From an uncultured Acidobacteriota bacterium (GTDB lineage Bacteria; Acidobacteriota; Polarisedimenticolia; J045): a DNA stretch of 64,000 nt. Location: contig CAVPDB010000001.1 of NCBI GenBank assembly GCA_963702545.1, positions 972 through 64,971 on the forward strand, in the 5' to 3' direction. The notes below the pieces were generated by a model. It was not told the DNA's origin and made no database searches. It saw nothing but the letters and a program-made list of their open reading frames with translations. Positions 1 through 43,840 of the stretch are shown in pieces. Position 1 is the first letter of the stretch, and each line of letters opens with the position of its first letter. Both the position numbers and the translations under genes were made by a program.

Positions 1-350
1 TAGAGCTTCCCGGTTGCGGAGCGGCAGGCGTGGAACGACTCCGGGAGCCGGCGGGCCGAGAGGGCGCGCACGCTGTCGGGCAGCAGGCCGGCCAGCCCGT
101 GCAGCAGCAGGGGCAGCTCGCGGCGGTTGGGGGCGCGGTAGGTGGCGACCTGCCCCAGGGCGTGGACGCCGGAGTCGGTGCGCCCGGCGCCCACCAGCGC
201 GACCGCCTCGCGCGGCGCGTCGTGGATCGCCGACAGCGCGGCCTCGAGCGTCCCCTGCACGGTGGGCCGGCCGGGCTGGAGCTGCCAGCCCGCGAACGGG
301 CCGCCGTCGTAGGCGACGACCAGCGCGGTCACCGGCGCGTCGGTCGGCAC
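1..350 (-). CDS. truA: tRNA pseudouridine synthase A, N-terminal ~116 aa only (left-arm copy, cut by window edge)
   Basis: Mirror of 21331-21679. The GTG start (cac at 348-350) matches the right-arm start. The translation matches VPTDAPVTALVVAYDGGPFAGWQLQ...GRTDSGVHA. Confidence 0.7.
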   Translation of the reverse strand, partial: MPTDAPVTALVVAYDGGPFAGWQLQPGRPTVQGTLEAALSAIHDAPREAVALVGAGRTDSGVHALGQVATYRAPNRRELPLLLHGLAGLLPDSVRALSARRLPESFHACRSATGKL

Positions 351-354
351 GGAA

Positions 355-1266
355 TCAGCGCGGCGGGCGCAGGGCCAGCGTTTCCGCGCGCGGATCGAGC
401 GTGGCGCGGTAGCCGATCGGGACCGCGCGCGCGCGCAGGCCGTGGCCGATCGGCAGGCCGGCGAGCACCGGGACGCCGAGCGCCTCGGCGTGCTCGCGGA
501 GCACGGCGGCGAGCGTTCGCGAGGGCCGGCCCGGAGGCGGGTCGCAAGCGGTGAACTGCCCCAGCGCAAGCCCGGCGATCCCGTCGAGGATCCCCGCGGC
601 GCGCACCTGCCACAGCAGCCGGTCGACGCGGTAGGGCGCCTCGCCGACATCCTCGAGGAAGACGACGGCGCCGCGCAGGTCGGGCTGCCACGGCGTTCCC
701 GCCACCGCCGCAAGGAGCGACAGGCAGCCGCCGGCCAGCGGGCCCAGGGCGCGCCGGCCGGGCCCGGCGAAGCGCCGGCCCCGCAGCGTGCGCGGCGCCT
801 CGGGGGTGGCGAGCATCGCCCGCAGGTCGGCCGCGCGGTAGCGCCGCCGGTCGGCCAGGTCGGCGACCGAGGGCGCGTACCACGAGGCGACGCCGCGGGC
901 GTGGAGCGCGAGCTGCAGCGCGGTCAGGTCGGAAAAGCCGATCAGCCAGCGCGGACGCCGGGCCACCGCGCGCAGGTCCAGCCCGCGCAGCAGGCGCGCC
1001 GTCCCCCAGCCGCCGCGCGCGGCCCAGACGGCGTCGATCGCGGGGTCGGTCAGCGCCCGGCACAGGTCGTCGAGGCGCGCTGCGTCGTGGCCCGCCAGGT
1101 CGCCGGCGCGTGCGAACAGCGAGCGGCCCGGCACCGGTTCGTAGCCCCAGGCCGCGATCCGCTCCATCCCGGCGCGCACGGCGTCCGGGTCGCGCAGTGT
1201 CGAGCCGGGCGCGATGACCGCGATCCGCCCCCCGTGCGGAATCGCCGGCGGCACGCGAGGCGTCAC
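355..1266 (-). CDS. ldcA: LD-carboxypeptidase (peptidase S66, LdcA-like), left-arm copy
   Basis: ORF 355-1311. Motifs are RIAVIAPGS, WAARGGWG, LIGFSDLTAL and LPIGHG. The likely GTG start at 1266 overlaps the upstream stop (GTGA). Confidence 0.8.
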   Translation of the reverse strand: MTPRVPPAIPHGGRIAVIAPGSTLRDPDAVRAGMERIAAWGYEPVPGRSLFARAGDLAGHDAARLDDLCRALTDPAIDAVWAARGGWGTARLLRGLDLRAVARRPRWLIGFSDLTALQLALHARGVASWYAPSVADLADRRRYRAADLRAMLATPEAPRTLRGRRFAGPGRRALGPLAGGCLSLLAAVAGTPWQPDLRGAVVFLEDVGEAPYRVDRLLWQVRAAGILDGIAGLALGQFTACDPPPGRPSRTLAAVLREHAEALGVPVLAGLPIGHGLRARAVPIGYRATLDPRAETLALRPPR

Positions 1267-2490
1267 GGGCCGCCCTGCTCCGTGATGACCGGAGCGTCGA
1301 TCCGGCGCCACGATCCGGCCGCGCTGGCGTGCGCGTCCCGCGCCTGGTCCAACAGCTGCGGCTCGGACAGGATCGCGAGACCCGTCCGCGCCAGCGCGAT
1401 CGCGGCCCGCTCCGCGGCCTCGATCGCCCCGGCGCGGCGGCCGCGCGGGTGAACTCCAGCGTGTGGGTCGGCGTCGGCCGCTCGGTGATCCGGAAGGTCG
1501 GGTGGAGCGACGGGACGAGGTGGGAGAGGGTCCCCATGTCGAGCGAGCCGATCGTGCCGCCGGGGCCGGGCTGCGGATCGAGCCCGGAGCGGCGGGCCTC
1601 GTGCTCCCAGGCCGCGGCCAGCACCGGATTGCTCACCATCTCGTCGTACAGGTTGTCGATCTCCTGGATCCGCGCCGTCGTGCCGGTGGCGCGCGCGACC
1701 CCGTCGACGACGCCGCGGAAGCGCGCCATCACGGTCTCGGCCAGGTAGTGCGAATCGGCGGCGCGCAGGCTGAAGCGGGCGCGGGCGCGGTCGGGCACCA
1801 CGTTGGCGCGCACGCCCCCCTCCAGGATCACCCCCGGCATCCGGACCTCCGGCCGGAGCCCCTTGAGCAGCGCGTCGCGCGCGATGAACAGCTGGATCAT
1901 CGCGTCGAGCGCGTTGATCCCCTGCTCGGGCGCCGCGACCGCGTGCGAGGAACGGCCGTGGAAGGTGACCTCGACCGACCAGGAGGCGAGGCTGGTGACG
2001 ACCGCGCGGTCCTCGCTCCCCGGGTGGGCCAGCAGCGCCACGTCGATCCCGTCGAAGGCGCCGCGCGTCGCGAGCACGACCTTTCCGCCGATCGTCTCCT
2101 CGGCCGGCGCGCCAAAGACGAGCACCCGCCCCGGACGGCGCCCAGGACGCGCGCCAGGCCGATCGCGGCCCCGCAGGCCGCGGCCCCGATCAGGTTGTGG
2201 CCGCAGGCGTGGCCGAGGCCGGGCAGCGCGTCGTACTCGGCCAGGAACGCGACCGAGGGCCCGTCGCCGGAGCGGCGCTCGGCCCGGAAGGCGGTCGGCA
2301 GCCCGGCGATTCCGGTCTTGACATGGAACCCTTCCTCTTCCAACGTCCCCGAGAGCAGCGTCACGGCGTGGAACTCGCCGCAGCCGAGTTCCGGAGACAG
2401 GTGGAGGTCGCGGGCCAGCGCGGCCAGGCGCGGGGCCTGGCGCAGCACCTCGGCGGCGACCTCGTCGTGCAGGGTGGCCAGGTCGATCAT
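1263..2490 (-). CDS. M20 family amidohydrolase/metallopeptidase, left-arm copy disrupted by at least 2 frameshifts
   Basis: The N-terminal 130 aa of ORF 1897-2490 equal the intact right-arm protein (19189-20418). The rest continues in the frame of ORF 329-2653 and shifts again near 1440. Confidence 0.75.
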
Positions 2491-2532
2491 CGTGCGGCGT
2501 CAGCCTCCTTGTGACCTCGGCCGGCGGAAGGT

Positions 2533-2908
<376 letters not shown>

Positions 2909-2962
2909 GGGGGTATTCTATGCCGTCCGCCGATCTTCTCCCGGCGGCGTCACGGTTTGATC

Positions 2963-4357
2963 ATGAGCGCACCGCCTCAGACACCCCCCGGCGGCCCGGC
3001 CGCCGGGCGCGGGGATCTTCGCCTTCCGTGGGACGAGCAGGCCGAAAGGGCCGTGCTGGGGGCCGTGTTGCTCGAGCCGTCCGCGCTCGACCCGGCGCTC
3101 GAGATCCTCAACCCGGAGGACTTCCACCGCGAGGCCCACCGCCGCGTCTTCGAGGCCATGGTGGCCCTCTCCCGGCGGGCCGAAGCGATCGACGCCGTCA
3201 CGGTCTGCGCCGAGATGGACCGCCAGGCGACGCTCGAAAGGGCCGGCGGGGCGGCCTACGTCGCTTCGCTGATCGACGGCCTGCCGCGGGCGACCAACGC
3301 CTCGGTCTACGCCCGGATCGTCCACGACCGCTCGCTCCTGCGCCAGACCCTCTACCTGGCGGACGCGCTGCGGGCCGAGTCGTCGGCCGCCGGCCGCCCC
3401 GCCGTCGAGATCCTCGACGAGGCGATGCAGCGCTTCTTCCGGCTGCAGGAGACCGGCCGCCGCGGCGGGCTCGTCCCGGTCCAGAGCATCGCGCACGACG
3501 CGCTGCGCTCGATCGAGGAGATGGCGGAAAAGCGCGAGGCGATCACCGGCCTCGCCACCGGCTACACCAAGTTCGACCAGTACACCGCCGGGCTGCAGGG
3601 AGGCGACCTGATCATCCTCGCCGCCCGCCCCTCGATGGGCAAGACGACGCTGGCGCTCAACATCGCCCAGCACGCGGCGATCCACGAGCGCGCCTCGGTC
3701 GCGATCTTCTCGCTCGAGATGGCAGCCAAGCAGCTCTTCTACCGCCTGCTGTGCGGCGAGGGGCGGATCGACCTCTACAAGCTCCGGACCGGCCGGCTCA
3801 ACAAGGAAGAGTGGGACCGGCTGGTCGCCGCCTTCGAGACCTACGACCGGACGCGGCTCTACATCGACGACTCCTCGGCGGTGACGCCGATGGAGATCCG
3901 GGCCAAGGCGCGGCGGCTCAAGGCCGAGCACGGGCTCGACCTGGTCGTCGTCGACTACCTGCAGCTGATGCGCTCCGAGCGCCGGGTGGAGAGCCGCCAG
4001 CAGGAGATCTCCGACATCAGCGGTGCGATGAAGGGGCTGGCCAAGGAGCTGAACGTCCCGGTGATCGCGCTCTCCCAGCTCTCGCGCGCGCCGGACCAGC
4101 GGCAGGGGGACCACAAGCCGCAGCTCTCCGACCTGCGCGAGTCGGGCGCAATCGAGCAGGACGCCGACGTCGTGCTGTTCATCTACCGGCCCGAGGTCTA
4201 CGAGAAGGACGAGGCCAAGGTCCTGGAGAAGGGGCTCGAGGGGATGGCCGAGATCATCATCGCCAAACAGCGCAACGGTCCGACCGGCTACGTGCCGCTC
4301 TACTTCGTCAAGCAGTTCACGCGCTTCGAGAACCGGCTCGACGACATCGAGACCTGA
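2963..4357 (+). CDS. dnaB: Replicative DNA helicase DnaB (intact copy, 464 aa)
   Basis: ATG at 2963 within ORF 1463-4357. Walker A is ARPSMGKTT. Other matches are VVVDYLQLM, SQLSRAPDQR, LRESGAIEQDADVV and IIAKQRNGPTG. Confidence 0.95.
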   Translation: MSAPPQTPPGGPAAGRGDLRLPWDEQAERAVLGAVLLEPSALDPALEILNPEDFHREAHRRVFEAMVALSRRAEAIDAVTVCAEMDRQATLERAGGAAYVASLIDGLPRATNASVYARIVHDRSLLRQTLYLADALRAESSAAGRPAVEILDEAMQRFFRLQETGRRGGLVPVQSIAHDALRSIEEMAEKREAITGLATGYTKFDQYTAGLQGGDLIILAARPSMGKTTLALNIAQHAAIHERASVAIFSLEMAAKQLFYRLLCGEGRIDLYKLRTGRLNKEEWDRLVAAFETYDRTRLYIDDSSAVTPMEIRAKARRLKAEHGLDLVVVDYLQLMRSERRVESRQQEISDISGAMKGLAKELNVPVIALSQLSRAPDQRQGDHKPQLSDLRESGAIEQDADVVLFIYRPEVYEKDEAKVLEKGLEGMAEIIIAKQRNGPTGYVPLYFVKQFTRFENRLDDIET

Positions 4358-4363
4358 CGCAGC

Positions 4364-6917
4364 TCACAGTTCCGAGCGCAGGACCTCGACCGGCGCCCGG
4401 GCCAGCGCTCCGCGGCTCGCTGCGAGGCCGGCCAGGACCGAGAGCAGCGCCGCGAGCGCCGCGCCCGCGACGAGCGTCCCCCAGGGCCAGCGCCACGGGA
4501 TCTCCATCCCGCGGGTGAGCACGGCCCAGGCCAGCACCGCCGCGCCGACCGCGCCGACCGTGCCCGCGACCAGCCCGACCAGCGCGTACTCGAGCGAGAA
4601 GACGGCGGCGACGCCGGCGCGGGTCATCCCGAGAGTCTTGAGGACCGCGACCTCGCGCCCGCGGCGCGCCGCGCCGGCGCCGATCGCACCGGCCAGGATC
4701 AGCACGCCGGCGACGACGGTGAACAGACCGAGGAAGCGCACCGCCTGGCCGATCCGCGCGATCACCGCGGAGACGCGGTCGAGGACCTGCCGGAGGTTGA
4801 TCAGCGTCACGTTGGGAAACGCGGCGGTCAGCCGGTCCTGGACCGCCAGCTCGCGCGCCGCCGGCAGCCGCAGCGTCGCCACCCGGAACTGCGGCGCGTC
4901 GTCGAGCGATCCGGGCTCGGCCAGCAGGAAGAAGTTGATGCCGAAGGTCCTCCACTCGACCCGCCGGAGGCTGGTGACGCGGAACTCGAGCGGGACCCCC
5001 TGGATGTCGAGGGTCAGCGAGGAGCCGACCTTCACGCCGAGCTGGCGCGCGAAGTCCTCCTCGACCGACAGCTCGGCGTGGGCGGGGTCCGACCAGAGCG
5101 TCCCCTCCACCAGCTCGTTCCCTTCCGGCAGCTCCGCCCGGTAGGTGATCCGCTGCTCGCGCGTCAGCGCCCAGCGCCGCCGGCCGTCCTCCCAGTCCGC
5201 GGGCCGGGTCTTCGGGTCGGCGGCCTCGGCCGTCGGCCGGCCGTCGATCGCGGCCAGCCGTCCGACCACGACCGGCGCGCTCTCGATCCCCTCCGCGCCC
5301 TCCGCTTCGAGCTGCGCGCGGAGCGCGTCCCACTGGTCGGGCTGGATGTCGATGACGAAAGCTGACGGCGCCAGGGTCGGGACGTCCGCGCCGAGCTGCC
5401 CGGCCAGCCGCGCCTGCACGATCTGCGTCGCCAGCACCACCGTGACTCCCAGGCCGAGCGCCACGATCGCACCGATCGTCGCCGCGCCGGGACGGGCCAG
5501 CGCCGCCAGCCCGTGCCGCACCCAGACCGGGGCGGCGCCGCGCGGCCCGCGTCCGACGGTGCGCGCCACGACCCAGGCCCCGGCCGCGAGCGCCGCCACG
5601 GCCGCGGCGATCCCGGCGGTGAAGCCGGCTGCGGCGGGCAACTCGCCGGCCTGCACCCAGGCCGCAGCGAAGACCCCCGCCAGCACGACCGCCCCCAGCC
5701 CCAGCCGCACCGGCCAGGGCGCGGCGAGCGGCTCGGCGTCGCGGCGCAGCACGCGGACCGGCGGCACGCGCCACGCGGCGGCGAGCGACGGGATGCTGAA
5801 GGCCGCCGCGACCACCGTTCCCAGCGCGATGCCGCGCAGCGCGGCGGCCGGGCTGAAGAAGCGCAGCGGCACCGCGGGCAGCAGGTCCTTCAGCAGCAAC
5901 GGGGCCAGCGCCGAGAGCCCGATCCCGAGCGCCGCACCGACCACGCTGCCGACGAGGCCGAGCAGCGCCGCCTGCGCCACGTAGAGCGCAAAGACCTCGT
6001 GCGGCCGCACGCCCAGCGCGCGCAGCACCGCGATCGCGTCGAGCCGCCCCGCGATCCAGGCCCGCGAGGCCTGGGCCACGCCGATCCCGCCGATCAGCAG
6101 CGAGAGCAGCGCGATCAGCCCGAGGAAGCGCTCGGCCCGCTTGAGCCCCTCGCGCAGCGCGGGCTGACCTTCGCGCCAGGTGTCGACGTCGTACCAGGTC
6201 GCGTCCGGCAGCTCGGCGCGGATCCGCGCGGCCAGCGCTTCGCTCGCGTCGGCGCCATCGCCCGGCAACGCGAAGAGCGCCTTGTGCTCGATCCGGCTGC
6301 CGCGCGCGTCGAGCCCGGCGCGCGCCAGGCCGGCGCCGTCGAGCAGGACACGCGGGCCGATCGCGAAGCCGGCCGCTGCCCGGTCGGGCTCCGCGCGGAC
6401 GATCCCGGCGACGCGGAAGGGCTGGCCGCCGATCAGGACGGTGTCGCCGGCCGACAGCTCCAGGCGCTCCGCCAGCTCGGGGCCGATCACGGCGGCGTCG
6501 GCAGCGAGCAGTTCGGCCAGCGGCCGCGGCGGGTCGAGCTCGAGCCGGCCGTAGAACGGGTAGGCGCCGTCGACGACCTTGAGCTGCACCAGCAGGCTGC
6601 GCCCGGCGGCGCCCCCCTTCCCCTCGCGCCGCGGCCATCGTCGCCATCTCGCGCAGGTCGGCGCGGCGCAGCCCGGGAACGCCGGCGACGAGCGCGTCGA
6701 GCGCGGGCGGGATCGGGCGGCTGCCGGAGACGACCAGGTCCGCGGCCAGGAGCGAGCGGGCCTCGCCCTGGATCCCGTCGCGCAGGCCCTGCGACAACCC
6801 GGCGACCGCAACGATCGCGGCCACCCCGACCGACAGGCAGGCCGCGAAGAAGACCATCCGCCCCAGCGCCCCGCGCGCCTCGCGCCGGGCGTAGGCGGCG
6901 AAGGCGCCGAGCCTCAC
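4364..6917 (-). CDS. YbbP-like ABC transporter permease (double FtsX/MacB-type, ~850 aa), left-arm copy with apparent frameshift near 6599-6638
   Basis: ORF 4364-6811 carries the body. The N-terminal TM segment ([36 protein letters not shown]) lies in the frame of ORF 4317-8084. The GTG start overlaps the stop of the upstream ATPase. Confidence 0.8.
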
Positions 6918-7612
6918 GCCGGGCTCCCGGCCGTGATCCGGTCGATCCGCCCGTCCTTGAGGTGGACCTGGCGCCCGGTCCGCGCGGCGATCGCCGGATC
7001 GTGCGTGACCATCACCAGCGTCGTGCCGTGCCGCTCCCGCAGCGCCATCAGCGTGTCGAGCACCCGCCCGCCGGTCGCGCTGTCGAGGTTGCCGGTCGGC
7101 TCGTCCGCCAGCAGCAGGGGCGGCCCGATCGCGAAGGCGCGGGCCAGCGCGACGCGCTGCTGTTCCCCGCCCGAAAGCTGCGCCGGATAGTGGTGGCCGC
7201 GCTCGGAGAGGCCGACCTCGGCCAGCAGCGAGGCGGCGCGGCCGCGCGGGTCGCCGGACCCGGACAACTCGACCGGCAGCATCACGTTCTCGAGGGCGGT
7301 CAGGTTCCCCAGCAGCTGATACGACTGGAAGACGAAGCCGATCGTCCGCCGCCGCAGCAGCGCCAGGGCATCCTCGGAGAGGTCCTGGATCGGCGCGCCG
7401 TCGATCAGCACCTGGCCCGAGGTGGGACGGTCGAGCCCGGCCATCAGCGCCAGCATCGTCGACTTGCCGCTGCCGGAGGGGCCGAGGATCGCGACGCACT
7501 CGCCGGGGTCGATCGCGAGGTCCACGCTGTCTAGAATCGTCAGCTCGCGGCCGCCCGACGGCAGCCGGCGGGTCAGGCGGCGGAGTTCCAGGCGCGGCAC
7601 GGGTTTCGTCAT
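6914..7612 (-). CDS. ABC transporter ATP-binding protein (YbbA/LolD-like), left-arm copy
   Basis: 232 aa. Walker A is GPSGSGKST, the signature is LSGGEQQR and Walker B is [12 protein letters not shown]. Confidence 0.9.
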   Translation of the reverse strand: MTKPVPRLELRRLTRRLPSGGRELTILDSVDLAIDPGECVAILGPSGSGKSTMLALMAGLDRPTSGQVLIDGAPIQDLSEDALALLRRRTIGFVFQSYQLLGNLTALENVMLPVELSGSGDPRGRAASLLAEVGLSERGHHYPAQLSGGEQQRVALARAFAIGPPLLLADEPTGNLDSATGGRVLDTLMALRERHGTTLVMVTHDPAIAARTGRQVHLKDGRIDRITAGSPA

Positions 7613-7632
7613 CGGGGTCCCGGGAGAGCTGG

Positions 7633-8328
7633 ATGTTGTATCGCCCCTTCGCAGTCGTCGCCAGCCTGGCCGCCCTGGCGGCAGGCCTGGCCGCGGCGCA
7701 GGCGCCCGCGGCCCCGGAGGCGCCGGCCGCGGCCGGCGCGGGGCCGCCCGTCGTCGTCTTCCTCGGCGACAGCCTGACGGCCGGCTTCGGACTCGCGGCC
7801 GACGAGGCCTTCCCGGCGCTGGTCGCAGCCTCGCTCGCGGCGCGCGGCACGCCGATCCGCGCGATCAACTCCGGCGTCTCGGGCGACACGACCGCGGGCG
7901 GGCTGCGCCGGCTCGACTGGGCGCTCCGCAGCCGGCCGCAGGTCGTGGTCGTCGCGCTCGGCGCCAACGACGGGCTGCGCGGCCAACCGCTCGATGCGAT
8001 CGAGGGGAACCTGCGCGCGATCGTCGAGCGCTGTCGCGCGGCGGGGGCGAAGGTGCTGCTGGCCGGGATGCTGATGCCCCCCAACTACGGCGGTGCGTAC
8101 GCCAGCGGCTTCGCGGCGATCTACCCGCGGCTGGCGAAGGAGCTCGCCCTCCCGCTGGTCCCCTTCCTGCTGGAAGGGGTGGCCGGACGGCCCGAGCTGA
8201 ACCAGGCCGACGGGATCCACCCCACCGCCGAGGGGCAGAGGATCGTCGCGCGGCATCTCGAGCCGTACCTGGCCGAGCTGCTCGGGGCGAGCGCCGGCCG
8301 CGGCGGCGCGGCGAAGACGGGCCGCTGA
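7633..8328 (+). CDS. tesA: Secreted SGNH/GDSL hydrolase (TesA-like arylesterase/thioesterase I), intact copy
   Basis: Signal peptide, then [17 protein letters not shown] and DGIHPT blocks. It is divergent from the ATPase-permease pair, as in the E. coli tesA-ybbA-ybbP arrangement. Confidence 0.8.
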   Translation: MLYRPFAVVASLAALAAGLAAAQAPAAPEAPAAAGAGPPVVVFLGDSLTAGFGLAADEAFPALVAASLAARGTPIRAINSGVSGDTTAGGLRRLDWALRSRPQVVVVALGANDGLRGQPLDAIEGNLRAIVERCRAAGAKVLLAGMLMPPNYGGAYASGFAAIYPRLAKELALPLVPFLLEGVAGRPELNQADGIHPTAEGQRIVARHLEPYLAELLGASAGRGGAAKTGR

Positions 8329-8329
8329 G

Positions 8330-9028
8330 GTGCGGCTCCCCGGCGGGCGCTTCGCGATCCAGGTCGCCGGGATCTCCGGTCCCGCCGACCTCGCCGCGGC
8401 GGTCGGCGGCGGCGCGACGCACGTCGGCTTCCCACTGCGGCTCCCGGTCCACTCGGAGGACTGCGATCCCCGCGAGGCGGCGGCGCTGATCGCCACGCTG
8501 CCGGCCGGCGTCGAGCCGGTCCTGATCACCTACCTCGAGACCGCGCACGAGATCGCGGAGCTGGCGCGCGAGGTCGGCGCCCGCACCGTGCAGTTGCACG
8601 GCAACCCGGCGCCGGACGAGGTCGCCAGGCTGCGGCAGATCGCGCCGGGACTCGCGGCCTGGGCGGCGCTGGTGGTCGGCGCGGTGCCGGAGCCGCTCCT
8701 GCTGATGCGCCTCGAGCGTCTCGCGCCGCTGGTGGACGCCTTCGTCACCGACACCTTCGATCCCCGCACCGGGGCGCGCGGGGCAACCGGCCGGACGCAC
8801 GACTGGAGCGTCAGCGCGCGGCTCGCGGCCTGCTCGCCGCGGCCGCTGATCCTGGCCGGGGGGCTGACACCGGAGAACGTCGCCGAAGCGGTCGCGACGG
8901 TCCGGCCGGCCGGGGTCGACGCGCACACCGGTGTCGAGGATGCTGCCGGCCGGAAGGACCCGGCGCGCGTCCGCGCCTTCGTCGAGGCCGCGCTCACGGC
9001 CGCGCGCCGCGAGGGGCTGACCGCGTGA
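8330..9028 (+). CDS. trpF: Phosphoribosylanthranilate isomerase-like protein (TrpF family), intact copy
   Basis: 232 aa, GTG start. The C-terminal region reads LILAGGLTPENVAEAV...GVDAHTGVEDAAGRKD, typical of PRAI. Confidence 0.65.
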   Translation: MRLPGGRFAIQVAGISGPADLAAAVGGGATHVGFPLRLPVHSEDCDPREAAALIATLPAGVEPVLITYLETAHEIAELAREVGARTVQLHGNPAPDEVARLRQIAPGLAAWAALVVGAVPEPLLLMRLERLAPLVDAFVTDTFDPRTGARGATGRTHDWSVSARLAACSPRPLILAGGLTPENVAEAVATVRPAGVDAHTGVEDAAGRKDPARVRAFVEAALTAARREGLTA

Positions 9029-9954
9029 ACCGGATCGGGATCGACCTCGGCGGCACCAAGATCGAAGCGGTCGCGCTGGCCCCCGACGGGACCGAGCTGG
9101 CGCGCCGGCGCGTGCCGACGCCGCGCGGCGACTACGACGCCACGCTGGCGGCGCTGGCGGAGCTGGTCCACGGCTTCGAGCACCAGGTGATGGCGCGCTG
9201 CCGGGTCGGGATCGGGATGCCGGGGGCGATCTCCCCGGCGACCGGCCTGGTCAAGAACGCGAATTCCACCTGGCTCAACGGCCGGCCGTTCCGGCGCGAC
9301 GTGGAGCGCGCGCTCGGCCGCCCGGTCGCGCTGGCGAACGACGCCGACTGCTTCGCGCTCTCGGAGGCGACCGACGGCGCGGGGGCGGGGGCGCGCGTCG
9401 TCTTCGGCGTGATCCTCGGGACGGGCGTCGGCGGCGGGATCGTCGTCGACGGCCGGCTGCTTGACGGCCCGAACGCGATCGCGGGCGAGTGGGGGCACAA
9501 TCCCCTGCCCTGGCCCGAGGACGACGAGCGGCCCGGGCCGCTCTGCTATTGCGGACGGTCCGGCTGCATCGAGACCTTCCTCTCCGGGCCGGGGCTGGCC
9601 CGCGACCACGCGCGGGCTGAAGTGCTGCCGGAAAGGGAGGCGCTCACGGCGACCGAGATCGCGGCGCGGGCCGCGGCCGGCGACGCCGGCTGCCGGCGCG
9701 CGCTCTTGCGCTACGAGCAGCGGCTCGCCCGCGCGCTGGCCCACGTGATCAACCTGCTCGACCCGCACGCGATCGTGCTCGGCGGCGGGCTCTCGGCCCT
9801 GCCGTCGCTCTACGAGCGGGTCCCCGCGCTCTGGTCGCGCTGGATCTTCTCCGATCGCGTCGAGACCCGGCTCCTCCCGCCGCGGCACGGCGACGCCAGC
9901 GGCGTGCGCGGCGCGGCCTGGCTCGCAGCGACGGCCCGGCGCACGCGGGGCTGA
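9025..9954 (+). CDS. ROK family sugar kinase (NagK/Mak-like), intact copy
   Basis: IGIDLGGTK, ANDADCFALSE, GTGVGGGIV and the Zn motif GHNPL...CYCGRSGCIET. The start overlaps the trpF stop (GTGA). Confidence 0.85.
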   Translation: MNRIGIDLGGTKIEAVALAPDGTELARRRVPTPRGDYDATLAALAELVHGFEHQVMARCRVGIGMPGAISPATGLVKNANSTWLNGRPFRRDVERALGRPVALANDADCFALSEATDGAGAGARVVFGVILGTGVGGGIVVDGRLLDGPNAIAGEWGHNPLPWPEDDERPGPLCYCGRSGCIETFLSGPGLARDHARAEVLPEREALTATEIAARAAAGDAGCRRALLRYEQRLARALAHVINLLDPHAIVLGGGLSALPSLYERVPALWSRWIFSDRVETRLLPPRHGDASGVRGAAWLAATARRTRG

Positions 9955-10865: not shown

Positions 10866-10866
10866 G

Positions 10867-12674: not shown

Positions 12675-13357
12675 GCGGTCAGCCCCTCGCGGCGCGCCAC
12701 CATGACGCAGCCTCGCGAAGGCGCGGCGCGCGCGGGCCGTCCGGCCAGCAGCATCCTCGACACCGGGTACACGTCGACCCCGGCCGGCCGGACCGTCGCG
12801 ACCGCTTCGCGACGTTCTCCGTGTCAGCCCCCCGGCCAGGATCAGCGGCCGCGGCGAGCAGGCCGCGAGCCGCGCGCAGACGCTGCAGTGGTGCCTCGGG
12901 CCGGGTGACCCGCGCGCCCCAGTCCGGGATCGAAGGTGTCGGTGACGAAGGCGTCCACAGCGGCGCGAGACGCTCGAGGCGGGGGCAGAACGGCTCGGCA
13001 CCGCGCCGACCACCAGCGCCGCCCAGGCCGCGAGTCCCGGCGCGATCTGCCGCAGCCTGGCGACCCTCGTCCCGGCGCCGGTTGCCATTGCGGGGGCGCG
13101 GGCGGGCGCCGACCTCGCGCGCCAGCTCCACGATCTCGTGCGCGGTCTCGAGGTAGGTGATCAGGACCGGCTCGACGCCGGCCGGCAGCGTGGCGATCAG
13201 CGCCGCCGCCTCGCGGGGATCGCAGTCCTCCGAGTGGACCGGGAGCCGCAGTGGGAAGCCGACGTGCGTCGCGCCGCCGCCGACCGCCGCAGCGAGGTCG
13301 GCGGGACCGGAGATCCCGGCGACCTGGGTCGCGAAACGCCCGCCGGGGAGCCGCGCC
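12671..13357 (-). pseudogene. trpF: TrpF-like gene, right-arm mirror copy, frameshifted, start codon altered
   Basis: ORF 12679-13617 contains RLPGGRFATQVAGISGPADLAAAVGGGATHVGFPLRLPVHSEDCDPREAAALIATLPAGVEPVLITYLETAHEI, then loses frame. The start GTG is replaced (cac to cgc on the plus strand). Confidence 0.7.
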
Positions 13358-14050
13358 TCGAGCGGCCCGTCTTCGCCGCGCCGCCGCGGCCGGCGCTCGG
13401 CCCGACCAGTTCGGCCAGGTACGGCTCGAGATGCCGCGCGAGGATCCTCTGCCCTTCGGCGGTCGGGTGGATGCCGTCGGCCTGGTTCAGCTCGTGCCTG
13501 CCGGCCACCCCTTCCAGCAGGAACGGGACCAGCGGGAGGCCGAGCTCCTTCGCCAGCCGCGGGTAGATCGCCGCGAAACCGCTGCGTACGCGCGCCGTAG
13601 TTGGGCGGAATCAGCATCCCGGCCAGCAGGACCTTCGCCCCGGCCGCGCGCCAGCGCTCGACGATGCGCGCAGGTTCTCCTCGATCTCCTCGAGCGGCTG
13701 GCCGCGCAGCCCGTCGTTGGCGCCGAGCGCGAGGACCACGACCTGCGGGCGCTGCGGAGCGCCCAGTCGAGCCGGCGCAGCCCGCCCGCGGTCGTGTCGC
13801 CCGAGACGCCGGAGTTGATCGCGCGGATCGGCGTGCCCCGCGCCGCGAGCGAGGCGGCGACCAGCGCCGGGAAGGCCTGGTCGGCCGCGAGTCCGAAACC
13901 CGCCGTCAGGCTGTCGCCGAGGAAGACGACGACGGGCGGCCCCGCGCCGGCCGCGGCCGGCGCCTCCGGGGCCGCGGGCGCCTGCGCCGCGGCCAGGCCT
14001 GCCGCCAGGGCGGCCAGGCTGGCGACGACTGCGAAGGGGCGATGCAACAT
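13358..14050 (-). pseudogene. tesA: TesA-like SGNH hydrolase, right-arm mirror copy, frameshifted
   Basis: ORF 13487-14218 matches the 7633-8328 protein up to ...RRLDWALRS and then diverges. The C-terminal part is in another frame (ORF 13197-13508). Confidence 0.7.
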
Positions 14051-14069
14051 CCAGCTCTCCCGGGACCCG

Positions 14070-14768
14070 ATGACGAAACCCGTGCCGCGCCTGGAACTCC
14101 GCCGCCTGACCCGCCGGCTGCCGTCCGGCGGCCGCGAGCTGACGATTCTGGACGACGTCGACCTCTCGATCGACCCCGGCGAGTGCGTCGCGATCCTCGG
14201 CCCCTCCGGCAGCGGCAAGTCGACGATGCTGGCGCTGATGGCCGGGCTCGACCGTCCGACCTCGGGCGAGGTGCTGATCGACGGCGCGCCGATCCAGGAC
14301 CTCTCCGAGGACGCCCTGGCGCTGCTGCGGCGGCGGACGATCGGCTTCGTCTTCCAGTCGTACCAGCTGCTGGGGAACCTGACCGCCCTCGAGAACGTGA
14401 TGCTGCCGGTCGAGCTGTCCGGGACCGGCGACCCGCGCGGCCGCGCCGCCTCGCTGCTGGCCGAGGTCGGCCTCTCCGAGCGCGGCCACCACTATCCGGC
14501 GCAGCTTTCGGGCGGGGAGCAGCAGCGCGTCGCGCTGGCCCGCGCCTTCGCGATCGGGCCGCCCCTGCTGCTGGCGGACGAGCCGACCGGCAACCTCGAC
14601 AGCGCGACCGGCGGGCGGGTGCTCGACACGCTGATGGCGCTGCGGGAGCGGCACGGCACGACGCTGGTGATGGTCACGCACAATCCGGCGATCGCCGCGC
14701 GGACCGGGCGCCAGGTCCACCTCAAGGACGGGCGGATCGACCGGATCACGGCCGGGAGCCCGGCGTGA
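14070..14768 (+). CDS. ABC transporter ATP-binding protein (YbbA/LolD-like), right-arm copy, intact
   Basis: Same 232-aa protein as 6914-7612, with at least 5 in-frame amino-acid substitutions (S28D, A32S, Q66E, S126T, D209N by my reading). Confidence 0.9.
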
Positions 14769-17316
14769 GGCTCGGCGCCTTCGCCGCCTACGCCCGGCGC
14801 GAGGCGCGCGGGGCGCTGGGGCGGATGGTCTTCTTCGCGGCCTGCCTGTCGGTCGGGGTGGCCGCGATCGTTGCGGTCGCCGGGTTGTCGCAGGGCCTGC
14901 GCGACGGGATCCAGGGCGAGGCCCGCTCGCTCCTGGCCGCGGACCTGGTCGTCTCCGGCAGCCGCCCGATCCCGCCCGCGCTCGACGCGCTCGTCGCCGG
15001 CGTTCCCGGGCTGCGACGCGCCGACCTGCGCGAGATGGCGACGATGGCGGCGGCGGAGGGGAGGGGGGCGCCGCCGGGCGCAGCCTGCTGGTGCAGCTCA
15101 AGGTCGTCGACGGCGCCTACCCGTTCTACGGCCGGCTCGAGCTCGACCCGCCGCGGCCGCTGGCCGAACTGCTCGCTGCCGACGCCGCCGTGATCGGCCC
15201 CGAGCTGGCGGAGCGCCTGGAGCTGTCGGCCGGCGACACCGTCCTGATCGGCGGCCAGCCCTTCCGCGTCGCCGGGATCGTCCGCGCGGAGCCCGACCGG
15301 GCGGCGGCCGGCTTCGCGATCGGCCCGCGTGTCTTGCTCGACGGCGCCGGCCTGGCGCGCGCCGGGCTCGACGCGCGCGGCAGCCGGATCGAGCACAAGG
15401 CGCTCTTCGCGTTGCCGGGCGATGGCGCCGACGCGAGCGAAGCGCTGGCCGCGCGGATCCGCGCCGAGCTGCCGGACGCGACCTGGTACGACGTCGACAC
15501 CTGGCGCGAAGGGCAGCCCGCGCTGCGCGAGGGGCTCAAGCGGGCCGAGCGCTTCCTCGGGCTGATCGCGCTGCTCTCGCTGCTGGTCGGCGGGATCGGC
15601 GTGGCCCAGGCCTCGCGGGCCTGGATCGCGGGGCGGCTCGACGCGATCGCGGTGCTGCGCGCGCTGGGCGTGCGGCCGCACGAGGTCTTTGCGCTCTACG
15701 TGGCGCAGGCGGCGCTGCTCGGCCTCGTCGGCAGCGTGGTCGGTGCGGCGCTCGGGATCGGGCTCTCGGCGCTGGCCCCGTTGCTGCTGAAGGACCTGCT
15801 GCCCGCGGTGCCGCTGCGCTTCTTCAGCCCGGCCGCCGCGCTGCGCGGCATCGCGCTGGGAACGGTGGTCGCGGCGGCCTTCAGCATCCCGTCGCTCGCC
15901 GCCGCGTGGCGCGTGCCGCCGGTCCGCGTGCTGCGCCGCGACGCCGAGCCGCTCGCCGCGCCCTGGCCGGTGCGGCTGGGGCTGGGGGCGGTCGTGCTGG
16001 CGGGGGTCTTCGCTGCGGCCTGGGTGCAGGCCGGCGAGTTGCCCGCCGCAGCCGGCTTCACCGCCGGGATCGCCGCGGCCGTGGCGGCGCTCGCGGCCGG
16101 GGCCTGGGTCGTGGCGCGCACCGTCGGACGCGGGCCGCGCGGCGCCGCCCCGGTCTGGGTGCGGCACGGGCTGGCGGCGCTGGCCCGTCCCGGCGCGGCG
16201 ACGATCGGTGCGATCGTGGCGCTCGGCCTGGGAGTCACGGTGGTGCTGGCGACGCAGATCGTGCAGGCGCGGCTGGCCGGGCAGCTCGGCGCCGACGTCC
16301 CGACCCTGGCGCCGTCAGCTTTCGTCATCGACATCCAGCCCGACCAGTGGGACGCGCTCCGCGCGCAGCTCGAAGCGGAGGGCGCGGAGGGGATCGACAG
16401 CGCGCCGGTCGTGGTCGGACGGCTGGCCGCGATCGACGGCCGGCCGACGGCCGAGGCCGCCGACCCGAAGACCCGGCCCGCGGACTGGGAGGACGGCCGG
16501 CGGCGCTGGGCGCTGACGCGCGAGCAGCGGATCACCTACCGGGCGGAGCTGCCGGAAGGGAACGAGCTGGTGGAGGGGACGCTCTGGTCGGACCCCGCCC
16601 ACGCCGAGCTGTCGGTCGAGGAGGACTTCGCGCGCCAGCTCGGCGTGAAGGTCGGCTCCTCGCTGACCCTCGACATCCAGGGGGTCCCGCTCGAGTTCCG
16701 CGTCACCAGCCTCCGGCGGGTCGAGTGGAGGACCTTCGGCATCAACTTCTTCCTGCTGGCCGAGCCCGGATCGCTCGACGACGCGCCGCAGTTCCGGGTG
16801 GCGACGCTGCGGCTGCCGGCGGCGCGCGAGCTGGCGGTCCAGGACCGGCTGGCCGCCGCGTTTCCCAACGTGACGCTGATCAACCTCCGGCAGGTCCTCG
16901 ACCGCGTCTCCGCGGTGATCGCGCGGATCGGCCAGGCGGTGCGCTTCCTCGGTCTGTTCACCGTCGTCGCCGGCGTGCTGATCCTGGCCGGTGCGATCGG
17001 CGCCGGCGCGGCGCGCCGCGGGCGCGAGGTCGCGGTCCTCAAGACTCTCGGGATGACCCGCGCCGGCGTCGCCGCCGTCTTCTCGCTCGAGTACGCGCTG
17101 GTCGGGCTGGTCGCGGGCACGGTCGGCGCGGTCGGCGCGGCGGTGCTGGCCTGGGCCGTGCTCACCCGCGGGATGGAGATCCCGTGGCGCTGGCCCTGGG
17201 GGACGCTCGTCGCGGGCGCGGCGCTCGCGGCGCTGCTCTCGGTCCTGGCCGGCCTCGCAGCGAGCCGCGGAGCGCTGGCCCGGGCGCCGGTCGAGGTCCT
17301 GCGCTCGGAACTGTGA
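14764..17316 (+). CDS. YbbP-like ABC permease, right-arm copy, apparent frameshift near 15044-15081
   Basis: The N-terminus lies in the frame of ORF 13601-15193 and the body in ORF 15091-17316. It is almost identical to the left copy. Confidence 0.8.
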   Translation, partial: REARRLRRLRPARGARGAGADGLLRGLPVGRGGRDRCGRRVVAGPARRDPGRGPLAPGRGPGRLRQPPDPARARRARRRRSRAATRRPARDGDDGGGGGEGGAAGRSLLVQLKVVDGAYPFYGRLELDPPRPLAELLAADAAVIGPELAERLELSAGDTVLIGGQPFRVAGIVRAEPDRAAAGFAIGPRVLLDGAGLARAGLDARGSRIEHKALFALPGDGADASEALAARIRAELPDATWYDVDTWREGQPALREGLKRAERFLGLIALLSLLVGGIGVAQASRAWIAGRLDAIAVLRALGVRPHEVFALYVAQAALLGLVGSVVGAALGIGLSALAPLLLKDLLPAVPLRFFSPAAALRGIALGTVVAAAFSIPSLAAAWRVPPVRVLRRDAEPLAAPWPVRLGLGAVVLAGVFAAAWVQAGELPAAAGFTAGIAAAVAALAAGAWVVARTVGRGPRGAAPVWVRHGLAALARPGAATIGAIVALGLGVTVVLATQIVQARLAGQLGADVPTLAPSAFVIDIQPDQWDALRAQLEAEGAEGIDSAPVVVGRLAAIDGRPTAEAADPKTRPADWEDGRRRWALTREQRITYRAELPEGNELVEGTLWSDPAHAELSVEEDFARQLGVKVGSSLTLDIQGVPLEFRVTSLRRVEWRTFGINFFLLAEPGSLDDAPQFRVATLRLPAARELAVQDRLAAAFPNVTLINLRQVLDRVSAVIARIGQAVRFLGLFTVVAGVLILAGAIGAGAARRGREVAVLKTLGMTRAGVAAVFSLEYALVGLVAGTVGAVGAAVLAWAVLTRGMEIPWRWPWGTLVAGAALAALLSVLAGLAASRGALARAPVEVLRSEL

Positions 17317-17322
17317 GCTGCG

Positions 17323-18716
17323 TCAGGTCTCGATGTCGTCGAGCCGGTTCTCGAAGCGCGTGAACTGCTTGACGAAGTAGAGCGGCACGTAGCCGGTCGG
17401 GCCGTTGCGCTGTTTGGCGATGATGATCTCGGCCATCCCCTCGAGCCCCTTCTCCAGGACCTGGCCTCGTCCTTCTCGTAGACCTCGGGCCGGTAGATGA
17501 ACAGCACGACGTCGGCGTCCTGCTCGATTGCGCCCGACTCGCGCAGGTCGGAGAGCTGCGGCTTGTGGTCCCCCTGCCGCTGGTCCGGCGCGCGCGAGAG
17601 CTGGGAGAGCGCGATCACCGGGACGTTCAGCTCCTTGGCCAGCCCCTTCATCGCACCGCTGATGTCGGAGATCTCCTGCTGGCGGCTCTCCACCCGGCGC
17701 TCGGAGCGCATCAGCTGCAGGTAGTCGACGACGACCAGGTCGAGCCCGTGCTCGGCCTTGAGCCGCCGCGCCTTGGCCCGGATCTCCATCGGCGTCACCG
17801 CCGAGGAGTCGTCGATGTAGAGCCGCGTCCGGTCGTAGGTCTCGAAGGCGGCGACCAGCCGGTCCCACTCTTCCTTGTTGAGCCGGCCGGTCCGGAGCTT
17901 GTAGAGGTCGATCCGCCCCTCGCCGCACAGCAGGCGGTAGAAGAGCTGCTTGGCTGCCATCTCGAGCGAGAAGATCGCGACCGAGGCGCGCTCGTGGATC
18001 GCCGCGTGCTGGGCGATGTTGAGCGCCAGCGTCGTCTTGCCCATCGAGGGGCGGGCGGCGAGGATGATCAGGTCGCCTCCCTGCAGCCCGGCGGTGTACT
18101 GGTCGAACTTGGTGTAGCCGGTGGCGAGGCCGGTGATCGCCTCGCGCTTTTCCGCCATCTCCTCGATCGAGCGCAGCGCGTCGTGCGCGATGCTCTGGAC
18201 CGGGACGAGCCCGCCGCGGCGGCCGGTCTCCTGCAGCCGGAAGAAGCGCTGCATCGCCTCGTCGAGGATCTCGACGGCGGGGCGGCCGGCGGCCGACGAC
18301 TCGGCCCGCAGCGCGTCCGCCAGGTAGAGGGTCTGGCGCAGGAGCGAGCGGTCGTGGACGATCCGGGCGTAGACCGAGGCGTTGGTCGCCCGCGGCAGGC
18401 CGTCGATCAGCGAAGCGACGTAGGCCGCCCCGCCGGCCCTTTCGAGCGTCGCCTGGCGGTCCATCTCGGCGCAGACCGTGACGGCGTCGATCGCTTCGGC
18501 CCGCCGGGAGAGGGCCACCATGGCCTCGAAGACGCGGCGGTGGGCCTCGCGGTGGAAGTCCTCCGGGTTGAGGATCTCGAGCGCCGGGTCGAGCGCGGAC
18601 GGCTCGAGCAACACGGCCCCCAGCACGGCCCTTTCGGCCTGCTCGTCCCACGGAAGGCGAAGATCCCCGCGCCCGGCGGCCGGGCCGCCGGGGGGTGTCT
18701 GAGGCGGTGCGCTCAT
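17323..18716 (-). CDS. dnaB: DnaB helicase, right-arm copy with a 1-nt deletion near 17462 that shifts the last ~45 codons
   Basis: ORF 16536-19877 carries DnaB to ...EVYEKDEA and then reads out of frame. The correct tail (VLEKGLEGMAEIIIAKQRNGPTG...) is in ORF 17323-19014. The sequence reads acctggcc here and accttggcc in the left copy. Confidence 0.85.
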
Positions 18717-18770
18717 GATCAAACCGTGACGCCGCCGGGAGAAGATCGGCGGACGGCATAGAATACCCCC

Positions 18771-19146
<376 letters not shown>

Positions 19147-19188
19147 ACCTTCCGCCGGCCGAGGTCACAAGGAGGCTGACGCCGCACG

Positions 19189-20418
19189 ATGATCGACCTG
19201 GCCACCCTGCACGACGAGGTCGCCGCCGAGGTGCTGCGCCAGGCCCCGCGCCTGGCCGCGCTGGCCCGCGACCTCCACCTGTCTCCGGAACTCGGCTGCG
19301 GCGAGTTCCACGCCGTGACGCTGCTCTCGGGGACGTTGGAAGAGGAAGGGTTCCACGTCAAGACCGGGATCGCCGGGCTGCCGACCGCCTTCCGGGCCGA
19401 GCGCCGCTCCGGCGACGGGCCCTCGGTCGCGTTCCTGGCCGAGTACGACGCGCTGCCCGGCCTCGGCCACGCCTGCGGCCACAACCTGATCGGGGCCGCG
19501 GCCTGCGGGGCCGCGATCGGCCTGGCGCGCGTCCTGGGCGCCGTCCCGGGGCGGGTGCTCGTCTTTGGCGCGCCGGCCGAGGAGACGATCGGCGGAAAGG
19601 TCGTGCTCGCGACGCGCGGCGCCTTCGACGGGATCGACGTGGCGCTGCTGGCCCACCCGGGGAGCGAGGACCGCGCGGTCGTCACCAGCCTCGCCTCCTG
19701 GTCGGTCGAGGTCACCTTCCACGGCCGTTCCTCGCACGCGGTCGCGGCGCCCGAGCAGGGGATCAACGCGCTCGACGCGATGATCCAGCTGTTCATCGCG
19801 CGCGACGCGCTGCTCAAGGGGCTCCGGCCGGAGGTCCGGATGCCGGGGGTGATCCTGGAGGGGGGCGTGCGCGCCAACGTGGTGCCCGACCGCGCCCGCG
19901 CCCGCTTCAGCCTGCGCGCCGCCGATTCGCACTACCTGGCCGAGACCGTGATGGCGCGCTTCCGCGGCGTCGTCGACGGGGTCGCGCGCGCCACCGGCAC
20001 GACGGCGCGGATCCAGGAGATCGACAACCTGTACGACGAGATGGTGAGCAATCCGGTGCTGGCCGCGGCCTGGGAGCACGAGGCCCGCCGCTCCGGGCTC
20101 GATCCGCAGCCCGGCCCCGGCGGCACGATCGGCTCGCTCGACATGGGGACCCTCTCCCACCTCGTCCCGTCGCTCCACCCGACCTTCCGGATCACCGAGC
20201 GGCCGACGCCGACCCACACGCTGGAGTTCACCCGCGCGGCCGCCGCGCCGGGGGCGATCGAGGCCGCGGAGCGGGCCGCGATCGCGCTGGCGCGGACGGG
20301 TCTCGCGATCCTGTCCGAGCCGCAGCTGTTGGACCAGGCGCGGGACGCGCACGCCAGCGCGGCCGGATCGTGGCGCCGGATCGACGCTCCGGTCATCACG
20401 GAGCAGGGCGGCCCGTGA
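19189..20418 (+). CDS. M20 family amidohydrolase/metallopeptidase (intact copy, 409 aa)
   Basis: HACGHNLIGAA metal-binding block, GAPAEETIGGK, and a dimerisation-domain-like middle. The stop overlaps the ldcA GTG. Confidence 0.8.
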   Translation: MIDLATLHDEVAAEVLRQAPRLAALARDLHLSPELGCGEFHAVTLLSGTLEEEGFHVKTGIAGLPTAFRAERRSGDGPSVAFLAEYDALPGLGHACGHNLIGAAACGAAIGLARVLGAVPGRVLVFGAPAEETIGGKVVLATRGAFDGIDVALLAHPGSEDRAVVTSLASWSVEVTFHGRSSHAVAAPEQGINALDAMIQLFIARDALLKGLRPEVRMPGVILEGGVRANVVPDRARARFSLRAADSHYLAETVMARFRGVVDGVARATGTTARIQEIDNLYDEMVSNPVLAAAWEHEARRSGLDPQPGPGGTIGSLDMGTLSHLVPSLHPTFRITERPTPTHTLEFTRAAAAPGAIEAAERAAIALARTGLAILSEPQLLDQARDAHASAAGSWRRIDAPVITEQGGP

Positions 20419-21326
20419 CGCCTCGCGTGCCGCCGGCGATTCCGCACGGGGGGCGGATCGCGGTCATCGCGCCCGGCTCGACACTGCGCGACCCGGACGC
20501 CGTGCGCGCCGGGATGGAGCGGATCGCGGCCTGGGGCTACGAACCGGTGCCGGGCCGCTCGCTGTTCGCACGCGCCGGCGACCTGGCGGGCCACGACGCA
20601 GCGCGCCTCGACGACCTGTGCCGGGCGCTGACCGACCCCGCGATCGACGCCGTCTGGGCCGCGCGCGGCGGCTGGGGGACGGCGCGCCTGCTGCGCGGGC
20701 TGGACCTGCGCGCGGTGGCCCGGCGTCCGCGCTGGCTGATCGGCTTTTCCGACCTGACCGCGCTGCAGCTCGCGCTCCACGCCCGCGGCGTCGCCTCGTG
20801 GTACGCGCCCTCGGTCGCCGACCTGGCCGACCGGCGGCGCTACCGCGCGGCCGACCTGCGGGCGATGCTCGCCGCCCCCGAGGCGCCGCGCACGCTGCGG
20901 GGCCGGCGCTTCGCCGGGCCCGGCCGGCGCGCCCTGGGCCCGCTGGCCGGCGGCTGCCTGTCGCTCCTTGCGGCGGTGGCGGGAACGCCGTGGCAGCCCG
21001 ACCTGCGCGGCGCCGTCGTCTTCCTCGAGGATGTCGGCGAGGCGCCCTACCGCGTCGACCGGCTGCTGTGGCAGGTGCGCGCCGCGGGGATCCTCGACGG
21101 GATCGCCGGGCTTGCGCTGGGGCAGTTCACCGCTTGCGACCCGCCTCCGGGCCGGCCCTCGCGAACGCTCGCCGCCGTGCTCCGCGAGCACGCCGAGGCG
21201 CTCGGCGTCCCGGTGCTCGCCGGCCTGCCGATCGGCCACGGCCTGCGCGCGCGCGCGGTCCCGATCGGCTACCGCGCCACGCTCGATCCGCGCGCGGAAA
21301 CGCTGGCCCTGCGCCCGCCGCGCTGA
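20415..21326 (+). CDS. ldcA: LD-carboxypeptidase (S66), right-arm copy
   Basis: Mirror of 355-1266 with the same translation apart from 1 residue. Confidence 0.8.
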   Translation: MTPRVPPAIPHGGRIAVIAPGSTLRDPDAVRAGMERIAAWGYEPVPGRSLFARAGDLAGHDAARLDDLCRALTDPAIDAVWAARGGWGTARLLRGLDLRAVARRPRWLIGFSDLTALQLALHARGVASWYAPSVADLADRRRYRAADLRAMLAAPEAPRTLRGRRFAGPGRRALGPLAGGCLSLLAAVAGTPWQPDLRGAVVFLEDVGEAPYRVDRLLWQVRAAGILDGIAGLALGQFTACDPPPGRPSRTLAAVLREHAEALGVPVLAGLPIGHGLRARAVPIGYRATLDPRAETLALRPPR

Positions 21327-21330
21327 TTCC

Positions 21331-22131
21331 GTGCCGACCGACGCGCCGGTGACCGCGCTGGTCGTCGCCTACGACGGCGGCCCGTTCGCGGGCTGGCAGC
21401 TCCAGCCCGGCCGGCCCACCGTGCAGGGGACGCTCGAGGCCGCGCTGTCGGCGATCCACGACGCGCCGCGCGAGGCGGTCGCGCTGGTGGGCGCCGGGCG
21501 CACCGACTCCGGCGTCCACGCCCTGGGGCAGGTCGCCACCTACCGCGCCCCCAACCGCCGCGAGCTGCCCCTGCTGCTGCACGGGCTGGCCGGCCTGCTG
21601 CCCGACAGCGTGCGCGCCCTCTCGGCCCGCCGGCTCCCGGAGTCGTTCCACGCCTGCCGCTCCGCGACCGGGAAGCTCTACCGCTACCGGATCGTCAACC
21701 GCCGGGTCGCGTTGCCGTTCGAGAGCCCGTGGGCCTGGCTCGTGCGCACGCCGCTCGACCTGGGCGCGATGCGCGAGGCGGCCGGCCGGCTGGTCGGCCG
21801 GCACGACTTCTCCGCCTTCGCCTCGGCCGGCGGCCAGCAGGAGACGGCGGTCCGCACGCTGCGGCGGCTGGAGCTGGCCGAGCGGCCGGGCGGCGTGCTG
21901 GAGCTGGACGCCGAGGCCGACGGCTTCCTCTACCGGATGGTCCGCAACCTCGCCGGGTTCCTCGTCGACGTCGGGCTGGGCCGCCGGGGCGCGGACGAGG
22001 CGCCGGAGGTCCTGGCCTCGCGCGACCGTCGGCGCGCCGGGGGAACGGCTCCGCCCCGGGGACTCTGCCTCGTGCGCGTCGACTACGGGCCGGAGTGGGA
22101 CGAAGCCGAGGGCGCAACCCTCCTGTTTTGA
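21331..22131 (+). CDS. truA: tRNA pseudouridine(38-40) synthase TruA (complete)
   Basis: GTG at 21331 within ORF 20968-22131. Matches are GAGRTDSGVHALGQV, YRYRI and FLYRMVRN. Confidence 0.9.
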   Translation: MPTDAPVTALVVAYDGGPFAGWQLQPGRPTVQGTLEAALSAIHDAPREAVALVGAGRTDSGVHALGQVATYRAPNRRELPLLLHGLAGLLPDSVRALSARRLPESFHACRSATGKLYRYRIVNRRVALPFESPWAWLVRTPLDLGAMREAAGRLVGRHDFSAFASAGGQQETAVRTLRRLELAERPGGVLELDAEADGFLYRMVRNLAGFLVDVGLGRRGADEAPEVLASRDRRRAGGTAPPRGLCLVRVDYGPEWDEAEGATLLF

Positions 22132-36915: not shown

Positions 36916-36937
36916 TGGAGAGAGGGGAGGAAGGACG

Positions 36938-37906: not shown

Positions 37907-37910
37907 CGCG

Positions 37911-43836: not shown

Positions 43837-43840
43837 CGCC

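Follow-up and report, generated by a model that had tools for sequence, protein, structure and literature searches.

A spacer-less 21.7-kb palindrome at the beginning of an Acidobacteriota contig window is very probably a fold-back assembly artefact

Does the long palindrome found in a contig of an uncultured Acidobacteriota bacterium belong to the chromosome, or was it introduced during assembly? The sequence analysed here (the window) comprises 64,000 nucleotides, positions 972–64,971 of contig CAVPDB010000001.1 (assembly GCA_963702545.1), and its first 21.7 kb consists of two inverted arms that meet inside the ispG gene. The comparisons with related genomes indicate that the palindrome is very probably an assembly artefact, derived from a fold-back chimeric long read, and not a structure of the chromosome. 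The first-pass annotation had also favoured an artefactual fold-back, and this reading was supported by the truncation of ispG, the single-copy arrangement in relatives, the continuation of native ispG past the pivot and the raw-read-grade error of one arm only.

When positions 1–21680 were compared with their own reverse complement by blastn, one high-scoring segment pair was obtained, aligning 1–21680 against 21680–1 with 97.2% identity, as expected from the palindrome described in the first-pass annotation. In a repeat search the inverted relation was resolved into 14 collinear blocks, the offsets of which resulted from small insertions and deletions (indels). Chance as the source of the inverted match was ruled out by its size of 21.7 kb. 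By walking the alignment of the arms, the pivot was placed at base 10866, where no more than a single base is left unpaired and a spacer is lacking (...GCCGGCCAT-G-ATGGCCGGC...), in agreement with the spacer-less turning point previously proposed near this position. Two segments of one locus are therefore placed on opposite strands with practically nothing between them. The G+C content of the window is 73%. Eight proteins of the window were assigned by exact matching to one contig of 131,582 bp, and the other members of their clusters are Acidobacteria/Acidobacteriota MAG proteins by name.

The left arm (1–10865) begins at base 1 of the window, hence the outer limit of the mirror relation, 21680, is imposed by the window edge and the palindrome may be longer than 21.7 kb. 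The first-pass statement that unique sequence is reached by the right arm only is accordingly not established. The 5' part of truA in the left arm (1–350, minus strand) runs off this edge, whereas the right copy (21331–22131, plus strand) is complete; the two differ by one mismatch, which is synonymous. The edge-truncated truA product, examined with four possible start codons, had no match in the protein collection, which hints weakly at a continuation of the contig beyond base 1, possibly as a longer palindrome.

The mirrored genes were identified by Pfam and by tblastn with orthologs from a relative, and rnpB by Rfam. Each arm carries truA (partial in the left arm), an S66 peptidase, an M20 amidohydrolase, rnpB, dnaB, an FtsX/MacB permease, an ABC ATPase, a GDSL lipase, trpF, a ROK kinase and a 3' fragment of ispG, which equals the earlier count of dnaB, rnpB and nine other duplicated genes.

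The closest homologs of ispG and truA led to four loci in related genomes. L084 is a 336,676-bp Joint Genome Institute (JGI) contig with about 95% DNA identity to the window, L081 and L085 are two stretches of one 445,013-bp ENA contig with about 84% DNA identity, and L082 and L083 are two short contigs. In L084 and in the 445-kb contig, the genes for ROK, trpF, GDSL, ABC, FtsX, dnaB, M20, S66, truA, uppS, cdsA, dxr and rseP are each present once, and in both long relatives their order and orientation correspond to those of the right arm and the unique region of the window. This single-copy synteny indicates that the linear arrangement is ancestral and that the point homologous to the pivot lies in the interior of the chromosome. 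The native single-copy locus would accordingly read carA, ispG (forward), ROK, trpF and GDSL (reverse), ABC and FtsX (forward), dnaB (reverse), rnpB, and then M20, S66, truA, uppS, cdsA, dxr and rseP (forward). A scan of genome contigs with the ROK protein resulted only in matches of at most 72% identity with no shared synteny. Up to about 32 kb, the unique region of the window is collinear with L084 with no excess of indels and, as far as the sequence tells, the assembly is sound outside the fold-back.

The pivot interrupts ispG within a run of codons, and the 5' part of the gene is absent from both copies. The left fragment occupies 10233–10865 (minus strand) and the right one 10867–11443 (plus strand, spread over three frames), and the GcpE Pfam match on either side of the pivot covers only profile positions 212–342 of 343. 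No match was obtained in the whole 64-kb window by tblastn with the N-terminal product of L081 ispG. The palindrome leaves no intact ispG at the native locus. The window also encodes dxr of the same 2-C-methyl-D-erythritol 4-phosphate (MEP) pathway, and ispG should therefore be needed.

When the native ispG genes of L081, L082 and L083 were aligned to the sense strand, the homology reached to within a codon of the pivot. At the breakpoint (marked here by ^) the native genes read ...GTG ATG GCx GGx... (V-M-A/V-G), for example ...GAC GTG^ATG GCC GGC..., and the window reads ...CAT^C^ATG GCC GGC..., so that the turning point lies at the native V-M-A-G codons and the sequence beyond it is its own reverse complement. 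Close to the pivot, the bases of both arms are prone to error. On the far side of the pivot, L081 has a full-length ispG, with carA, thrS, rpmI, rplT and further genes next to it; ispG also runs on past the breakpoint in L082 and in L083, the latter with the same ispG/ROK/trpF neighbourhood. The junction is thus absent from these genomes, all of which are close relatives.

Between ROK and ispG, both arms (9954–10233 and the mirror 11448–11790) are without a hypothetical gene of 175/176 amino acids which is found at this place in L081, L083, L084 and L085. Its presence or absence appears to be a true difference between strains.

In the first-pass annotation, the outermost 80 nucleotides of the arms had been noted to mirror each other with one mismatch. 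The relation holds gene by gene down to the pivot, but near-identity is confined to the outer part: the identity between the arms was 99.77% over positions 1–6500, 97.05% over 6500–8500 and 90.43% over 8500–10866. In total, the arms differ by 191 substitutions and 100 indel events, of which 91 are single-base, and in 72 of the 100 events the base is missing from the right arm. Compared with L084, the left arm is well polished (95.5% identity, a baseline divergence of about 4.4% and 6 gap openings in 9.9 kb). The outer right arm (13501–21680) is as clean as the left arm between 13.5 and 21.7 kb, with a few residual substitutions up to about 15.2 kb, and is collinear with the unique region and the relatives. 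In contrast, the inner right arm (10867–13500) is raw-read-grade and mostly short of bases relative to the left arm; its divergence from L084, determined at 12.0–13.5 kb, was 9–11% substitutions and 6–24 indel columns per 500 bp.

The polarity of the differences was determined with L084 as well. At the sites differing between the arms in the inner 7–10 kb, the left arm agreed with L084 at 108, the right arm at 19 and neither at 8 sites, whereas the outer 7 kb showed the opposite trend, with 10 sites in favour of the right arm and 2 in favour of the left. The inner substitutions are strand-asymmetric, with 45 C<->T against 4 A<->G changes, while the divergence from L084 is symmetric (128 and 127, respectively). 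In trpF, the substitutions between the arms were distributed over the three codon positions as 7/13/12, compared with 9/6/39 in the natural divergence.

The effect on the inner genes is one-sided. The left copies of the ROK-family sugar kinase (9025–9954, plus strand; 96% amino acid identity to the L084 ortholog) and trpF (PRAI; 8330–9028, plus strand) are intact, and the left GDSL-type lipase lies at 7633–8328 (plus strand). The inner copies of the right arm, including the ispG fragment, are full of frameshifts: the right ROK copy (11789–12674, minus strand) has 41 indel events in 930 bp together with 61 substitutions relative to the left copy and is spread over three frames, and trpF (12674–13353) and the GDSL-type lipase (13362–13924), both on the minus strand, are frameshifted. 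The outer frameshifts, found in the left M20, the right dnaB and both FtsX copies, correspond to differences in homopolymer length (C4/C5, G2/G3, A2/A1 and C6T2/C6T) and, judged by this form, are errors of the consensus or of reads and not products of evolution. Single-nucleotide indels, missed bases and strand-specific miscalls after the junction constitute the error profile of a single noisy read. The synonymous bias, natural substitution spectrum and low indel number expected of a real, evolving duplication were not found.

The most probable course of events is as follows. The source sequence would be a long-read metagenome assembly in which a fold-back chimeric read ended inside ispG, reading one strand of a fragment and then directly its complement. 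Such a read could be an un-split template/complement nanopore read or an inverted chimera from amplification or ligation. The assembler would have taken it as a junction, extending the contig to the middle of ispG and then back on the opposite strand. During polishing, ordinary reads of the locus would be assigned to the better arm, or to the part of the other arm where they could be anchored. The first 2.7–4 kb or so of the right arm past the pivot would attract practically no reads and retain single-read error levels. A real junction should be crossed by reads like any other position and both inner arms should be polished alike, in contrast to the one-sided error observed. Because an error of roughly 10% persists on one side of the pivot, the junction was presumably carried by hardly any reads, probably by a single one. 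As to the sequencing platform, the number of reads behind the junction and the dynamics of polishing, the account gives what we infer from the sequence pattern.

Reads of this kind are well documented. Fold-back reads make up about 0.55–0.6% of Oxford Nanopore Technologies (ONT) genomic DNA reads, sequence of more than 11 bp that does not map is found between the segments in under half of the flagged artefact reads, and many fold-back reads escape adapter-trimming tools (Heinz, Meyerson and Li 2026, PMC12870357). The palindrome resembles them in that its halves map to one locus on opposite strands with nothing between, and in that the position of the junction is arbitrary, here in the middle of a gene, and absent from related genomes. 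It differs in being part of an assembled and partly polished contig, in which one arm has been cleaned and raw-read error is left in 2.7–4 kb only. Nanopore base calls after an inverted-duplication junction are also known to be inaccurate, with bases skipped (Spealman, Burrell and Gresham 2020, PMC7229812). In accordance with that, the sequence is inaccurate right after the junction and normal before it, and the missing bases fall predominantly in the right arm. Unlike the real inverted duplications of yeast and human in that study, the low-quality stretch is here bounded by polishing and not by the read length. As an alternative technical source, palindromic chimeras reportedly arise after whole-genome amplification, as described in the Pacasus preprint (10.1101/173872).

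Several points weigh against the fold-back artefact. In about one in five of the inner differences it is the right arm which agrees with the reference, and in ROK 32 of the 61 differences fall on third codon positions, a moderate excess, so that some of the differences between the arms may be strain polymorphism rather than error. The support by a single read would follow from the error density and not from a count of reads. Near the pivot it is the arm collinear with the unique region that is dirty, and because of this a 'winner takes all' course of polishing has to be assumed, which would be plausible. In addition, the contig name of Flye type is that of a related metagenome-assembled genome (MAG) and not of the source.

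One alternative is a physically real inverted duplication in the Acidobacteriota population, fixed or subclonal, which could have formed, for example, when a fork broken within ispG gave rise to a fold-back inversion. We regard it as improbable. If it were true, dnaB and rnpB would be duplicated in a spacer-less palindrome with arms of at least 10.9 kb, and the errors after the pivot would reflect the known failure of nanopore sequencing at inverted-duplication junctions rather than low support. In another alternative, a rare but physically real molecule, arisen in vivo by fold-back inversion at a broken replication fork or from a hairpin-capped double-strand break in one cell, would have been read once and made the consensus by the assembler. 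The spacer-less junction and the single-molecule-grade sequence after the pivot are explained equally well by this origin and by a library artefact, the two being indistinguishable by sequence, and in either case the palindrome is not the genome structure of the organism. Technical fold-backs are common in ONT genomic DNA reads (PMC12870357), therefore the prior strongly favours a technical origin and such a molecule is very improbable.

In a further alternative, the chromosome would contain a real and fixed segmental duplication, palindromic and at least 10.9 kb in size, with the inner part of one arm in decay. The palindrome is indeed present in the deposited sequence, and the arms together hold one intact copy of each complete gene (dnaB, ROK, trpF and GDSL in the left arm, M20 in the right). 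However, ispG is truncated in both copies at the junction, and relatives at about 95% DNA identity have the region in single copy. An identity of 90% with single-nucleotide indels every 20–30 bp, directly beside 99.8%-identical sequence, is unlike the evolution of pseudogenes, and the substitution spectrum is strand-asymmetric while natural divergence is not. Many spanning reads and equal polishing of both inner arms would also be expected. Moreover, long spacer-less palindromes are cleaved by SbcCD and are poorly tolerated in bacteria. A fixed duplication is on these grounds highly improbable.

A mis-join in the assembly graph, formed with no chimeric read, could have fused two strain haplotypes of the locus in head-to-head orientation where the coverage broke off within ispG. 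The metagenome contains several close strains, protein clusters at ≥90% identity being many-membered, and the polymorphism-like differences (the agreement of the right arm with the reference at inner sites and the third-position enrichment in ROK) are compatible with such an event. Nevertheless, the inner right arm, with its dense single-nucleotide indels and strand-asymmetric substitutions, shows read errors and not strain variation, and a spacer-less junction exact to the base presupposes some sequence in which it is actually present, which makes a mis-join of this type exceedingly improbable.

Kilobase-scale inverted repetition is known from the terminal inverted repeats of Streptomyces linear chromosomes, and hairpin telomeres from Borrelia, Agrobacterium and phage N15. 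The palindrome resembles them in scale, and read-through of a hairpin is likewise spacer-less; the genuine cases, however, are located at replicon ends, leave housekeeping genes untruncated and are conserved among relatives, whereas here the pivot is internal to the contigs of relatives and ispG is cut. Although a perfect loop-less fold-back is the geometry expected of read-through at the covalently closed end of a linear replicon, a hairpin telomere is barely conceivable and was rejected on synteny, as the pivot lies inside the housekeeping gene ispG and not at a replicon end, the homologous point is internal to the 445-kb contig (ispG continuing to carA and thrS) with L082 and L083 likewise continuing, and the 336-kb relative has the same single-copy gene block internally. 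No telomere-like repeat was seen at the pivot, and no telomere resolvase of the ResT/TelK/TelN type was found among the selected open reading frames (ORFs) of the window that were scanned with Pfam.

With the fold-back artefact as the preferred reading, the palindrome has no biological significance and its value lies in quality control. The public MAG contig, 131,582 bp in length, would carry a spurious inverted duplication of at least 10.9 kb, by which the copy numbers of markers (dnaB, rnpB, truA) are inflated, ispG is broken and frameshifted pseudo-copies are added. Such errors can skew completeness and contamination estimates, pangenome counts and catalogues of structural variants. The signature by which the artefact can be recognized in the absence of reads is a spacer-less pivot inside a gene with one arm clean and the other raw-read-like just past the pivot.

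The remaining mirrored genes are located in the outer parts of the arms. The ABC-transporter ATPase is found at 6914–7612 (minus strand) in the left and at 14070–14768 (plus strand) in the right arm, where it is also intact. The left dnaB (2963–4357, plus strand) is intact with 99% amino acid identity to the L084 ortholog, while the frame of the right copy (17323–18716, minus strand) is shifted by a 1-nt homopolymer deletion at 17462 (A vs AA). The class A RNase P RNA gene rnpB was detected by Rfam in full length and with 286.7 bits in both arms (2536–2901, minus strand, and 18778–19143, plus strand). The left M20 amidohydrolase (1266–2490, minus strand) has two homopolymer frameshifts, at 1430 (C4 vs C5) and 2134 (G2 vs G3), and the right copy (19189–20418, plus strand) is intact. 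The S66 (LD-carboxypeptidase-like) peptidase is encoded at 355–1254 (minus strand) and 20427–21326 (plus strand).

Both copies of the FtsX/MacB-type permease (4364–6917, minus strand, and 14765–17316, plus strand) are frameshifted. Relative to the L084 ortholog, the frameshift falls in the same C-rich tract in each (6615–6625 and 15058–15079), and the arms differ in the tract itself (C6T2 vs C6T). The shared frameshift would seem to be a systematic error of the consensus, made where the sequence is difficult, and not a real frameshift. At 48652–53342 (plus strand) the window encodes another efflux set, composed of HlyD, MacB-FtsX and an ABC ATPase, which is a paralog of the ABC-FtsX pair in the palindrome. 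The ATPase of this set (52662–53285) is 50% identical to the L084 protein that is orthologous to the ABC ATPase of the palindrome.

In the rest of the window, a housekeeping cluster is located at 35878–45921, consisting of plsX-fabD-fabG, an ORF of the size of acyl carrier protein (ACP), fabF, HPr kinase, and IIA and enzyme I of the phosphotransferase system (PTS). A gene for tRNA-Pro(GGG) lies at 47162–47238. Two short tandem repeats, both with 96% matches, were detected: 25 nt x 3.2 at 26488–26566, just downstream of rseP, and 19 nt x 4.2 at 40268–40347, downstream of a ketoacyl-ACP synthase gene. At the right end, an ORF of more than 1144 amino acids (60566–64000, minus strand) runs off the window; it encodes Kelch beta-propeller repeats, nine MopE-type putative metal-binding motifs and a thrombospondin type-3 repeat, and tandem DNA repeats of 144–147 nt are situated within it at 61667–63608.

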